Below, in pieces: positions 3,004-6,456 of a stretch of DNA of 10,394 nt (position 1 is the stretch's first letter; every line of letters starts with the position of its first letter). The stretch is taken from IMG/VR virus record IMGVR_UViG_3300033463_000077; one strand, 5' to 3'. Below the pieces are notes generated by a model. It had not been told where the DNA came from and did no database searches. It was given only the letters and a program-made list of their open reading frames with translations. The position numbers were made by a program, and so were the translations under genes. This stretch comes from a virus. Its lineage: Duplodnaviria > Heunggongvirae > Uroviricota > Caudoviricetes.

Positions 3004-3032
3004 GTTTACTTTTTGAGTTAAGATGTTATATT
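3004..3032 (+). promoter_or_regulatory. Early-type promoter
   Basis: GTTTACTTTTTGA GTTAAGA TGTTATATT; 34/35 identical to the copy at 659 over the extended motif. Confidence 0.85.
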
Positions 3033-3074
3033 AAAATATCGAATAACCACCAAATAAATTAAGGAGAACGAATT

Positions 3075-3929
3075 ATGGAAATCCGCAAACTGTCCGCCGC
3101 CAATGAAGAGCAGATCAAATCCCAGAGCGAAAGCTTCTTTGATCTCGGCATCACCTCCCAGAAAGCCGCTGTGCTTCTCAACTATCTGTTTCAGTACAAG
3201 TTGGAACACTGTGCATCCAAGCGGGGCTATTACTACGACACCAAGACCGCTGACAGTGTGAACGGCGGTGGGCTGTTGGTCAAAGGAAAGGCACAGATCA
3301 CCATCAATGATATGAATGAAGTCGGAATTTATTTCCGTGATCATTGGGCCATCAATAAATATGTCCGGGTTGCCTCCGGGAAATCTGAGGTCATCAAATC
3401 CATCAAAGATAAGATGGGCAATGAGCTGAAGAAGCTTTGGAAGATGTTCAAAGATGAACGGATCGTCATTAATATCAAAGATCACACTGCACTCTACAAT
3501 GAAGTCGGTAAATACCTTAATCTCTCAGATGATATTGTGACCACCACCGAAAGCGGAAAGAAGGTCATTATTATCAGTCTGAACGAATACCGTGCTCTCT
3601 ATGAATTCCTTAAGAGCCGGGAACCCGCCAAGATCAAGGAACGGTATGGCACCACTGCCTACAATACCATGGTCGGTCAGCGGATCGAGGATCAGTTCCT
3701 TCTCTCCGCGATTGATGTGATCAAAAATGAGATCAGAAACGTGGAACATGAATATTCCGAGACCTGCAAGAGAGCCGAGGAATCCTTTAACGAGAGCTAT
3801 AAACAGCTCCGTGACAAACGTGAACTGGAAAAGGCGGAGGCTGAAAAGGCCAAGCTCTTCAAGATCGAGGAACTTAATCAGCAGATGAAAGACCTTCTGA
3901 ATTCCGCTTTGGGAATGACGGTTCAGTAA
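3075..3929 (+). CDS. Hypothetical protein (284 aa) with C-terminal coiled coil
   Basis: SD AAGGAG at 3061-3066, own promoter, long ORF with strong C/G third-position bias. Glu/Lys/Arg heptad-like tail (EIRNVEHEY...QQMKDLLNS). Confidence 0.85.
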   Translation: MEIRKLSAANEEQIKSQSESFFDLGITSQKAAVLLNYLFQYKLEHCASKRGYYYDTKTADSVNGGGLLVKGKAQITINDMNEVGIYFRDHWAINKYVRVASGKSEVIKSIKDKMGNELKKLWKMFKDERIVINIKDHTALYNEVGKYLNLSDDIVTTTESGKKVIIISLNEYRALYEFLKSREPAKIKERYGTTAYNTMVGQRIEDQFLLSAIDVIKNEIRNVEHEYSETCKRAEESFNESYKQLRDKRELEKAEAEKAKLFKIEELNQQMKDLLNSALGMTVQ

Positions 3930-3930
3930 G

Positions 3931-3995
3931 AGGAGATAAAGGGAGATAGAGGGTGATTGAAACTGCCCTCTATATTACCTTTTAGTTATCTGCCT
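3931..3995 (+). terminator. Long imperfect hairpin after ORF 3075 (terminator or processing stem)
   Basis: Core ATAGAGGGTG (3946-3955)/TGCCCTCTAT (3964-3973), extendable through AAGG/CCTT and AGG-AGATA/TATCT-G-CCT. Confidence 0.55.
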
Positions 3996-4062
3996 TTCAT
4001 CACTAGAAGTGAAGTTGAAATTTTCAAAAATGAATCAAAATTTTTAAAGAAGGGTTTGAATA

Positions 4063-4371
4063 ATGGAAGACAAAGATATTGATTATGAAGTGAAGATCTA
4101 TCAAATCTACGATCAGTTGGCTAAAGAAAATTTATTGAATGCATGGTGTGATTTTTCCAAAAGAGTGATGAAGTATTTGGAAATGGAATGGGAGCCTGAG
4201 AATCCTCCAACCGTTGAAGAAATTCAATCAGTGACCGAAACTTTTGTTGGAAATAATGTTGGAAATATCAATGATATTGGAGCAAAACTTCACATTGATG
4301 ATTTTTCCTTGCTTCTTACTTTCATGATCGTTGGGTTTGATCTTATCATAAATGGAGAAAAGGAAGTTTAA
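4063..4371 (+). CDS. Hypothetical acidic protein (102 aa)
   Basis: ATG with upstream GAAGGG; protein-like composition; same orientation as neighbours; no domain recognised. Confidence 0.7.
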   Translation: MEDKDIDYEVKIYQIYDQLAKENLLNAWCDFSKRVMKYLEMEWEPENPPTVEEIQSVTETFVGNNVGNINDIGAKLHIDDFSLLLTFMIVGFDLIINGEKEV

Positions 4372-4394
4372 ATTTTCATTTGAGATGTTATAAT
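4366..4394 (+). promoter_or_regulatory. Promoter of the tRNA pair (GTTTAA-17-TATAAT, extended -10)
   Basis: GTTTAA ATTTTCATTTGAGA TGT TATAAT, ending 23 nt before tRNA-Thr; overlaps the stop codon of ORF 4063. Confidence 0.8.
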
Positions 4395-4417
4395 AATAAA
4401 TATGAAAAAGAGCTATT

Positions 4418-4505
4418 GCCGGGTTTCCCCTAGTGGACGAAGGGACCGGATTCGTAATCCGGTAGCGAAAGCTCATCGTGAGTTCGAATCTCACACCCGG
4501 CTCCA
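4418..4505 (+). tRNA. trnT: tRNA-Thr(CGU) with long variable arm (class II body), 88 nt, CCA encoded
   Basis: Acceptor GCCGGGT/ACCCGGC, discriminator U, CCA at 4503-4505. D-stem CCCT/AGGG. Anticodon stem CCGGA/TCCGG with loop TT-CGT-AA. V-arm AGC-GAAA-GCT. T-arm GTGAG-TTCGAAT-CTCAC. Confidence 0.9.
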
Positions 4506-4507
4506 AT

Positions 4508-4583
4508 AGGCCATTGGTGTAGCGGCTTTGCACATCAGATTTTGGATCTGAGGGTCCTCGGTCGGCACGAGGATGGCCTGCCA
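4508..4583 (+). tRNA. trnQ: tRNA-Gln(UUG) with non-canonical T-loop, CCA encoded
   Basis: Acceptor AGGCCAT/ATGGCCT, G73, CCA. D-stem GTGT/GCAC. Anticodon stem TCAGA/TCTGA with loop TT-TTG-GA. T-stem CCTCG/CGAGG with loop GTCGGCA. Confidence 0.88.
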
Positions 4584-4586
4584 ATT

Positions 4587-5570
4587 TTATTTTGAAGGTG
4601 ATTTTCTTTTTTTACATTTTTGAAGAAGATCTGGCATATATTTTTCCATCCATCTTCTTATTTTTTGTGGCGGTTTATCAATTAAAATTGCAACTTTTGA
4701 AATCCACCCATTTTTTGTAAAGTCAATATTTGAAGTTTTAACAAGCTCTATTAGTGGCTTATTCATTTCCAGCAATTTCATTTTTTGTTCTTTCAAATAT
4801 TCCAACCAGCTTCTTTTTGCTTTTTTATTTACTTCTTTATATTTGAACACTCTATTTTCTAATTTTTTTAATCCGACATCAATATTAGATATAAATTTCA
4901 AAAATTCATTTATAGTTTTTTGTGTATTTTCAGAATATCCTATTCTAAATACAGTCCAGCCTTTTTCATCTAAGTATGCATCTTTTTTATTATCATGTCC
5001 TTTTCTTGTTTCCCCATGAATAAAATGTTGTTTTCCATCAAGTTCAACCGCAACTTTTATATTCATAAATGCAAAATCAATAAAATATGGAGACTCACAG
5101 TACTCATTTACAATATCATATTTTTTAAAAAGATCAAATTTTTGAATGCATTCATCAAAAAACCATTGTTCTAAATATGACATTTCACCAGCTGCACGGC
5201 GTTCCCAAGCAGTTTTTCCGGTTTTTTGCTTTAAATAATTCACTCTTCTTTGTCTTGCTTCTTCAACCGCTTCTTGATGAGTGGACCAAAAATTTATTTG
5301 TGCATCTGTTAAAAATTTTGATTTACATTCTTTATTTGAACAAGTCAACTTCCAAAACCTTCCATTTGATCTTAATGCGGCGCCTAAAGGTCTTGAAAAA
5401 ACTTCAACTTTATTTTTATTACAATATTGGCAAATAGGAATATCTAAATAATTTAATACATAATCAAATAGTGATAAATCATGTTTTATTTTTATATGAG
5501 TACAAAATCCAATATTTGTTTCAAATGATTGATTGCAAATTTTACAATTTTTTAAAAGTTCATGTATCAT
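4587..5570 (-). CDS. Putative free-standing homing endonuclease: Zn-binding N-terminus, DUF559/Vsr-like PD-(D/E)xK nuclease, C-terminal HTH-like tail
   Basis: C2H2 finger CKIC...HIKIKH; second Cys cluster CQYC...CSNKEC; nuclease motif IDFAF...VELDGKQH...DNKKDAYLDEKGWTVFRI; tail IDFTKNGWISKVA...PQKIRRWM. Start placed at ATG 5570 (SD-like AAGGAAAG upstream); the track start is 5594. Confidence 0.85.
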   Translation of the reverse strand: MIHELLKNCKICNQSFETNIGFCTHIKIKHDLSLFDYVLNYLDIPICQYCNKNKVEVFSRPLGAALRSNGRFWKLTCSNKECKSKFLTDAQINFWSTHQEAVEEARQRRVNYLKQKTGKTAWERRAAGEMSYLEQWFFDECIQKFDLFKKYDIVNEYCESPYFIDFAFMNIKVAVELDGKQHFIHGETRKGHDNKKDAYLDEKGWTVFRIGYSENTQKTINEFLKFISNIDVGLKKLENRVFKYKEVNKKAKRSWLEYLKEQKMKLLEMNKPLIELVKTSNIDFTKNGWISKVAILIDKPPQKIRRWMEKYMPDLLQKCKKRKSPSK

Positions 5571-5616
5571 ATTTTTCTTTCCTTTAGTTAACACATCTTA
5601 TTTGTACCATTACTTT

Positions 5617-5624: not shown

Positions 5625-5674
5625 TTTGGTGAAGTGAAGTTTACTTTTTGAATTTTAATGTTATATTAAAATAT
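5625..5674 (+). repeat. 50-bp direct repeat, copy 1 (promoter with extended upstream flank)
   Basis: TTTGGTGAAGTGAAGTTTACTTTTTGAATTTT.. matches 6407..6456 at 46/50; first 32 bp identical. Confidence 0.9.
5639..5667 (+). promoter_or_regulatory. Early-type promoter
   Basis: GTTTACTTTTTGA ATTTTAA TGTTATATT, exact consensus copy. Confidence 0.85.
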
Positions 5675-6406: not shown

Positions 6407-6456
6407 TTTGGTGAAGTGAAGTTTACTTTTTGAATTTTGGTGTTATATTTTAATAT
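6407..6456 (+). repeat. 50-bp direct repeat, copy 2
   Basis: 46/50 identical to 5625..5674; offset 782 bp. Confidence 0.9.
6421..6449 (+). promoter_or_regulatory. Early-type promoter
   Basis: GTTTACTTTTTGA ATTTTGG TGTTATATT, exact consensus copy. Confidence 0.85.

Follow-up and report, generated by a model that had tools for sequence, protein, structure and literature searches.

The 10,394-nt stretch of viral DNA analysed here (the window; IMG/VR record IMGVR_UViG_3300033463_000077) comes from the genome of a large, uncultured phage of the class Caudoviricetes, and it carries a gene for a threonine tRNA with the anticodon CGU, tRNA-Thr(CGU), whose variable region forms the additional hairpin of a class-II tRNA. 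In textbooks and reviews, and in the tRNA annotation based on them, long variable arms in bacteria are the mark of the tRNAs for Leu, Ser, Tyr and Sec. The gene encodes an intact tRNA and belongs to a family of phage tRNAs in which a class-II body is combined with anticodons for Thr, Lys, Cys, Asn, Trp and Arg, with the cognate identity elements kept. We consider it probable, from the sequences compared below, that the product is a working decoder of ACG codons, charged by threonyl-tRNA synthetase (ThrRS) and built on a class-II-shaped phage chassis.

Structure of the tRNA-Thr(CGU) and its long-arm relatives

ARAGORN calls a tRNA-Thr at 4418-4505, with the CGU anticodon at tRNA position 36, and the gene is a member of the generic tRNA family of Rfam (RF00005), where its score of 40.6 bits exceeds the gathering score of 29. 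Folded alone, it has a minimum free energy (MFE) of -37.1 kcal/mol (z = -3.5) in a structure that adds a fifth hairpin to the cloverleaf; none of 200 shuffled sequences was as stable. The acceptor stem reads GCCGGGU/ACCCGGC (7 bp), A26 stands between the D arm and the anticodon arm, the CCA end is encoded (4503-4505) and the bases engaged in tertiary interactions are in place (U8, A14, G15/C48, G18G19, U33, G53-C61 and the TΨC bases). With 15 nt, a 3-bp stem and a GAAA loop, the variable region fits the definition of class II, namely more than 10 nt forming a stem-loop (Table 1). The original prediction, made from this DNA before the present analysis, had proposed the cloverleaf, the CGU anticodon and the 15-nt class-II-type variable region, which ARAGORN, RF00005, the MFE fold and the sequence all bear out. 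It had also proposed a connector of 3 nt between the acceptor and D stems, where 2 nt are normal. The generic Rfam model obtains a 2-nt connector only through a one-base shift of the acceptor and a broken pair, and the 3-nt connector is real, as confirmed by the alignment to the family covariance model described below, which inserts one base at this place both in the window tRNA-Thr and in its relative from contig L172.

A sensitive blastn search of the window tRNA against cultured phages returned tRNAs that match it in length but differ in anticodon: Thr(UGU) in Aeromonas phage phiA047, and Lys(CUU) both in Caulobacter phiCbK-like phages and in the Xanthomonas jumbo phage XacN1. The variable arm of these Lys(CUU) tRNAs, AGCGAAAGCU-CAUC, is an exact copy of that of the window, and the one of phiA047, AGGGAAACCU-CAUC, has the middle stem pair flipped. 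A pattern permitting both forms of the arm was then scanned against IMG/VR, one genome per species for 185,579 prokaryote species and a metagenome collection, and it recovered 42 phage-type tRNAs with the arm, 31 of them distinct. Their anticodons are Thr UGU (14), Cys GCA (8), Lys UUU (5), Lys CUU (5), Asn GUU (4), Trp CCA (3), Arg CCU (2) and the Thr CGU of the window; a Tyr, Ser or Leu anticodon occurs in none of the 42 tRNAs bearing this variable arm. Only two of the 57 matches in bacterial genomes are tRNAs (L049, which lies inside a tRNA array, and L064), the rest being chance matches in coding sequence. An earlier DNA pattern made of the anticodon arm and a long gap had given no matches in IMG/VR. 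Long-arm tRNA-Thr genes, for which the original prediction had suggested looking among phage tRNA sets, are thus found there (the 14 Thr(UGU) of the scan, with XacN1, phiM12 and phiA047 as cultured carriers).

The family was characterized through a seed alignment of 30 phage tRNAs sharing the arm, from which the window was left out. In this alignment 96.8% of the cells are paired and both sides change in 20 of the 23 pairs; none of 500 shuffles reached its score and no slid register came near it. As the middle pair of the variable stem, 15 members have C-G and 15 have G-C. MAFFT had wrongly moved the extra base to the 5' end, and the alignment based on the covariance model built from these 30 tRNAs (R1) was used instead. 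R1 gives 93.1 bits to the window tRNA, for a seed range of 82-100, and 83.9 bits to the L172 tRNA, whereas other phage tRNAs score at most 62.6 (Ser), at most 60.5 (Tyr), about 57 or less (Leu) and 48-51 (class-I Thr(CGU) alleles). By this score the window tRNA-Thr belongs to the phage long-arm family. As read from the aligned genes, the family chassis consists of a 7/5 acceptor/T arrangement, a D arm of Ser/Tyr type and a variable arm in which one base precedes a 3-bp stem, the stem is closed by a loop that is mostly GNRA, and CAUC follows as the tail.

Several cultured phages carry such tRNAs. XacN1 (L174, AP018399.1 38900-46300) has at least five, for Gly UCC (86 nt), Thr UGU (91 nt), Cys GCA (89 nt), Asn GUU (89 nt) and Lys CUU (89 nt), and its Thr and Asn members retain the CAUC tail under variable loops reading AUAAUA and UUAAUA. 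An 84-nt Thr(UGU) adjoins a Gln(UUG) in phiM12, and 87-nt tRNA-Cys genes occur in EcS1 and in a Karamvirus; the cultured phages with a tRNA-Cys relative include EcS1 and RZH. The 3-nt connector is shared only with the Lys(CUU) members found in phages, where it reads UUC or UCA. The CUU and CGU anticodons are one substitution apart; when a closer tie to Lys(CUU) was sought by pairwise identity of the tRNA cores, these members were not singled out over the Cys or the Thr(UGU) ones. The paper describing the XacN1 genome does not mention the shape of its long tRNAs (PMC5852040), and in a literature search, outside which most subscription journals fell, long-arm phage tRNAs with a 7/5 arrangement and a class-I amino acid were nowhere described. 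The original prediction was to count as refuted if long-arm tRNA-Thr proved already common and catalogued in this phage group. Half of this holds: long-arm tRNA-Thr genes do recur in phages, cultured ones included, and no paper cataloguing them was found. The window Thr(CGU) is therefore a further member of a recurrent kind of phage tRNA, apparently undescribed in print.

Some side observations concern these tRNA sets. The long Thr(UGU) and Ile(UAU) genes of phiA047 (OM033136.1; L001:1498-1581 and 1743-1832) both lack a GenBank annotation, an example of how annotation pipelines may mislabel or miss long-arm tRNA genes. Long tRNA-Ile(UAU) genes occur at L001:1743-1832, L049:2030-2120, L110:102-195, L132:78-172 and L147:43-134, and their variable-arm loops (AGAUAAG, AGAUUAG or UGAUACG) mean that the arm displays GAU; they make up a second, separate class of long-arm phage tRNAs. 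Large phage tRNA arrays (L005:463-625; L007:6642-6806; L152) hold a long and a normal tRNA for one amino acid side by side, often with the same anticodon, the pairs being Cys/Cys, Lys UUU/Lys UUU, Asn and Ile GAU.

Alleles of the locus in sister phages and the question of a tRNA-Tyr origin

Contigs of sister phages were fetched through metagenome relatives of the VWA protein encoded in the window. One of them (L164) is identical to the window; for the others, the VWA protein shares with that of the window 84% (L165 and L166), 81% (L168) or 64% (L172) identity, and the DNA of L165 and L166 is 88% identical to the window over one 10-kb alignment. At the same place and behind the same promoter block, L165, L166 and L168 carry a 75-nt class-I tRNA-Thr(CGU) followed by a tRNA-Gln(UUG). 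Besides the locus, the promoter and the tRNA-Gln partner, this class-I allele has in common with the window tRNA the CGU anticodon and the ends of the molecule, GCCGG...CCGGC-U-CCA (G1-C72, C2-G71, C3-G70, G4-C69, G5-C68, U73 and CCA). Its variable region has 5 nt instead of the 15 of the window form, which moreover possesses a class-II D arm and a 3-nt connector, and the D, anticodon and T arms of the two are unrelated. Identity between the window and L165 is 48-70% only across 4401-4600, the flanks being at 84-98%; since the drop is confined to this segment, both tRNAs were evidently exchanged as a sharply bounded cassette. The comparison of these loci leads us to regard the long and the 75-nt tRNA-Thr(CGU) as interchangeable alleles of one locus in the lineage. 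Separately, two more islands of the window, 3751-4000 and 5351-5600, show 46-74% identity to L165 amid about 90% or more.

The most distant of these contigs, L172, carries the long form of the tRNA-Thr at the same locus. Relative to the window, both partners have changed so that pairing is kept at 6-67 and 7-66 of the acceptor, at one pair of the D stem (C-G to A-U) and at one of the variable stem (A-U to G-C), all of them compensatory changes; its variable loop is GGAA instead of GAAA, which is still a GNRA loop, and the CAUC tail and a 3-nt connector (UUU) are kept. Judged by these substitutions, purifying selection maintains the shape of the long form.

The original prediction had interpreted the gene as a tRNA-Tyr body recruited to threonine by an anticodon shift and retuned for ThrRS, an interpretation with which the R1 scores, the census of anticodons and the alleles of the sister locus do not agree. 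Because a class-I Thr(CGU) occupies the sister locus, CGU is the locus's own anticodon and not a shifted Tyr anticodon. The clue on which the idea had leaned, a Tyr GUA displaced by one position, carries no information, since any NGU anticodon followed by A37 gives GUA at positions 35-37; here these letters are G35, U36 and A37. A bacterial tRNA-Tyr is recognized by its GUA anticodon (with G34 and U35) and by A73, and the window has CGU and U73. The resemblance to bacterial class-II tRNA-Tyr lies in the short variable stem, the several unpaired 3' bases and the similar make-up of the D arm, and the geometry of the arm (one base, a short stem, several unpaired 3' bases) is indeed closer to tRNA-Tyr than to Ser or Leu. 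The phage tRNA-Tyr genes seen have a tail of 2-3 nt, against the 4-nt CAUC of the window, and their R1 score is no better than that of Ser. No specific tie to Tyr appeared in the R1 scores or in core identity, the single true Tyr in the alignment being 65% identical and closer family members 75-89%. Recruitment of a tRNA-Tyr by anticodon shift is accordingly not supported, with 93.1 bits for the window against at most 60.5 for genuine phage tRNA-Tyr. The variable arm of the coliphage tRNA-Cys relatives ends in UUC, and so does that of E. coli tRNA-Tyr; the family could thus go back to an ancient Tyr-type tRNA of class II.

Charging, decoding and the possible role of the arm

In bacteria, ThrRS recognizes G1-C72, C2-G71, G35 and U36, and the discriminator is not decisive (PMC9976931). 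The window tRNA-Thr has all four elements, as the original prediction had correctly listed together with U73. The same agreement extends over the family. Of the 12 long Thr members, all have G1-C72 and 11 have C2-G71; U73 is found in all ten long Cys members, G73 in all three Asn members, A1-U72 with G73 in both Trp members and A73 in six of the eight Lys members, in agreement with published identity sets (PMC9976931). Throughout the sequences compared, acceptor and discriminator identity tracks the anticodon. Charging of every member by the cognate synthetase would produce such tracking, which would not be expected if the arm had redirected all of them to the seryl-, tyrosyl- or leucyl-tRNA synthetase (SerRS, TyrRS, LeuRS).

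Redirection of this kind is nevertheless what the original prediction had envisaged as one outcome, the tRNA being mischarged by SerRS or TyrRS and ACG recoded. With LeuRS considered as well, the long arm would make the tRNA a substrate of one of these enzymes, and ACG would in part be read as Ser, Tyr or Leu. What SerRS relies on is the long variable arm rather than the anticodon, and mischarging has precedents in the allo-tRNAs (PMC5389517) and in the nev-tRNAs of nematodes (PMC3333845). We nonetheless judge such recoding extremely improbable. LeuRS and TyrRS of E. coli require A73 and SerRS prefers G73 (PMC9976931; PMC7609411), whereas the window has U73. Its Levitt pair is G15-C48, where E. 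coli LeuRS requires A15-U48, and it has G35 in place of the U35 of Tyr. SerRS would call for a long stem followed by about one unpaired 3' base at most; in the phage tRNA-Ser genes of the fetched loci the variable stem has 5-7 bp and the tail about 1 nt, against 3 bp and 4 nt in the window. The identity elements that follow the anticodon across the family and the class-I Thr allele at the same locus argue in the same direction.

The two precedents also differ from the phage tRNA in their make-up. Allo-tRNAs likewise combine a long variable arm with anticodons outside Ser, Leu and Tyr, but they are bacterial, with an 8/4 or 9/3 acceptor/T arrangement, a Sec-like D arm and mostly Ser identity (G73 or U73 together with the arm) (PMC5389517); the window tRNA-Thr has a 7/5 arrangement, Thr identity elements and a phage as carrier. 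Nev-tRNAs are class-II bodies whose anticodons belong neither to Leu nor to Ser (PMC3333845), and they are eukaryotic. In the phage family the acceptor identity agrees with the anticodon, whereas nev-tRNAs are reportedly charged with leucine against theirs.

The mechanism that we favour for the window tRNA-Thr would run as follows. It would be transcribed jointly with the neighbouring tRNA-Gln(UUG) from their own early-type promoter and charged by the host ThrRS, and ACG would be read as threonine. The reshaped tRNA would stay acceptable to ThrRS, to EF-Tu and to the ribosome, and, much less surely, the arm may alter its shape enough for escape from host tRNA-targeting immunity or from another shape-reading factor. 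EF-Tu and the ribosome already handle class-II tRNAs.

Several points weigh against this picture. ACG is the rarest Thr codon in the open reading frames of the window (6 of 121 in 10 kb of a much larger genome), which makes codon supply a weak motive. The 3-nt connector is unusual among tRNAs. The seed set was gathered by an exact variable-arm pattern, so that the conservation of the arm within it is partly circular, and variation independent of the pattern comes only from L172, XacN1, EcS1 and RZH. As regards evasion, long and short forms replace each other at this locus and coexist in the large tRNA arrays, and either pattern fits several stories. The rarity of ACG and the abnormal connector could also be claimed for a look-alike without a role in translation, be it a pseudo-tRNA in decay or a decoy that titrates an anticodon nuclease, or some other tRNA-binding defence protein, of the host; in addition, some irregular bacterial long-arm tRNAs, the UAU variants of allo-tRNAs, are inactive in translation assays (PMC5389517). 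A look-alike seems very unlikely to us: every stem is intact and the tertiary bases are present, L172 documents compensatory evolution, neither the encoded CCA nor the ThrRS acceptor elements have been lost, and the gene fills the slot of a normal tRNA-Thr(CGU) in the sister phages. Moreover, a decoy would not need an acceptor identity that follows the anticodon across the family.

For the arm itself, our leading guess, which we hold tentatively and by analogy, is that it may serve escape from host systems directed against tRNAs, a plausible idea that the original prediction had also raised. Among the known host effectors that act on class-I tRNAs, PARIS cleaves tRNA-Lys (residues 40/41), and phage T5 escapes it with a tRNA of its own (PMC11464382). 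The substrates of a bacterial Schlafen are tRNA-Lys, Met, Val, Phe and Ile (PMC13056530), and the toxSAS FaRel2 has tRNA-Gly and tRNA-Thr as its selected targets, its labelling being mainly of type-I tRNAs (bioRxiv 10.1101/2024.07.05.602228). Phage tRNAs that escape defences via point changes have been described (PMC10264068, PMC11464382, PMC11555353). The tRNA-Lys and tRNA-Tyr of T5, which evade PARIS and retron effectors (PMC11464382, PMC11555353), offer a possible functional analogy, that of an isoacceptor unseen by tRNA-directed immunity of the host; they have the class-I shape and point changes in the anticodon stem-loop, whereas in the window the shape of the whole body is changed.

The arm could alternatively be a handle, its hairpin and CAUC tail being read by a phage-encoded factor for processing, modification or repair, or a mark of self sparing phage tRNAs from a phage nuclease that degrades those of the host; it would then be more than a passive shield against host enzymes, and ACG would still be read as Thr. 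This would account for an arm whose sequence, and not its shape alone, is conserved among phages infecting Aeromonas, Caulobacter, Xanthomonas and numerous uncultured hosts, and for a CAUC tail that persists despite a changed stem or loop in XacN1 Thr, XacN1 Asn and L172; the lineage also has RNA ligases 1 and 2 and weaker matches to phosphodiesterase and kinase domains. Yet sister phages with the same gene neighbourhood lack the arm, and its conservation could be explained by common descent and by a GNRA loop stabilising a 3-bp stem, besides having been selected for by the pattern search. On balance we find a handle unlikely. A broader and doubtful proposal is that hairpin and CAUC tail form a portable, armoured chassis, on which any anticodon with the matching acceptor identity could be mounted. 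The resulting tRNA would resist, or be distinguished from host tRNAs by, shape-reading systems that target tRNAs (host effectors, or nuclease and repair enzymes of the phage). Related phages would exchange the cassettes through recombination at tRNA loci with homing endonucleases beside them, the swap of class-I and long-arm forms in this lineage being an instance.

If the long-arm tRNAs are ordinary decoders, the synthetases for class-I tRNAs tolerate a class-II body, which would be useful for engineering orthogonal or tagged tRNAs, and phages benefit from reshaping tRNAs. The natural pair of class-I and long alleles in near-identical phages would then be a ready-made experiment on what that benefit is.

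Promoter, tRNA-Gln partner and neighbouring genes

The features of the tRNA-Thr gene and of its surroundings are collected in Table 1.

Table 1. Coordinates of the tRNA-Thr(CGU) gene, its parts and adjacent features in the window
Feature	Position	Strand	Basis
tRNA-Thr(CGU), class-II shape, 88 nt including encoded CCA	4418..4505	+	ARAGORN; Rfam; family model R1; fold
3-nt connector UUC, acceptor to D stem (normal, 2 nt)	4425..4427	+	R1 alignment insertion
D arm, stem CCCU/AGGG, loop AGUGGACGA (A14, G15, G18G19, 20a/20b, A21)	4428..4444	+	MFE fold
Anticodon arm CCGGA-UUCGUAA-UCCGG; CGU at 4453-4455	4446..4462	+	ARAGORN; sequence
Variable region, 15 nt: U44, stem AGC/GCU (4464-4466 with 4471-4473), GAAA loop (4467-4470), unpaired tail CAUC (4474-4477)	4463..4477	+	Fold; sequence
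T arm GUGAG-UUCGAAU-CUCAC	4478..4494	+	Sequence; fold
Discriminator U73	4502..4502	+	Sequence
Promoter-like site of the tRNA pair, sigma-70-like: TTTAAA, 16-nt spacer, TG-TATAAT	4367..4394	+	Consensus scan, 10/12 matches, extended -10
tRNA-Gln(UUG), second cassette gene, atypical T-loop GUCGGCA	4508..4583	+	ARAGORN; Rfam, 39.8 bits
DUF559/Vsr-like endonuclease gene, abuts tRNA cassette	4587..5594	-	Pfam DUF559, 5.9e-9; PHROG families annotated HNH endonuclease

The promoter-like site ends 24 nt upstream of the tRNA-Thr, and in the alignment the sister phages L165, L166 and L168 share a nearly identical promoter block that extends as far as the tRNA. A promoter-like block of about 35-75 nt recurs in many copies in the window and in L164, L165 and L168, as seen from blastn self-hits; its copies in the window lie at 659-695, 1082-1116, 2684-2720, 3004-3040, 5639-5673 and 6421-6455.

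The tRNA-Gln(UUG) starts 2 nt after the tRNA-Thr. Its Rfam score was obtained when the search was limited to 4380-4620, the match having been filtered out in the gathering run over the whole window. This tRNA is odd as well, with G54 and G58 replacing U54 and A58 in the T-loop and with an A1-U72 pair; its L165 counterpart is ordinary (T-loop UUCGAGU), so that both odd tRNAs of the window move as one cassette.

The DUF559 gene ends 3 nt from the CCA of the tRNA-Gln. It is 84-96% identical to L165, against 48-70% for the adjoining tRNA cassette; it is split in L165 and L166 (198 + 93 aa; L165:13442-14321) and absent from L168 and L172. By analogy, it may be a homing endonuclease tied to the exchange of the tRNA cassette, a lead for further work. 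In phage T4, the homing endonuclease SegB is located in the tRNA region.

Other genes of the window encode a MoxR-type ATPase, a DUF2201/VWA protein and a radical-SAM/SPASM product matching a PHROG family. A megablast of the whole window against cultured phages gave no match, and IMG/VR searches seeded with the proteins of two neighbouring genes found no relative. The gene tables of L165 (322-1548) and of the lineage include a T4-type RNA ligase 1 (Rnl1) and an RNA ligase 2 (Rnl2), with weaker matches in the lineage to the phosphodiesterase domain of tRNA ligase and to a KTI12/AAA_33-type kinase domain, and IF3 and ribosomal protein S21 are encoded as well. Taken together, the gene set of the lineage looks like a toolkit for tRNA repair and translation, in which the ligases and the phosphodiesterase and kinase matches would suit the repair of cut tRNAs.

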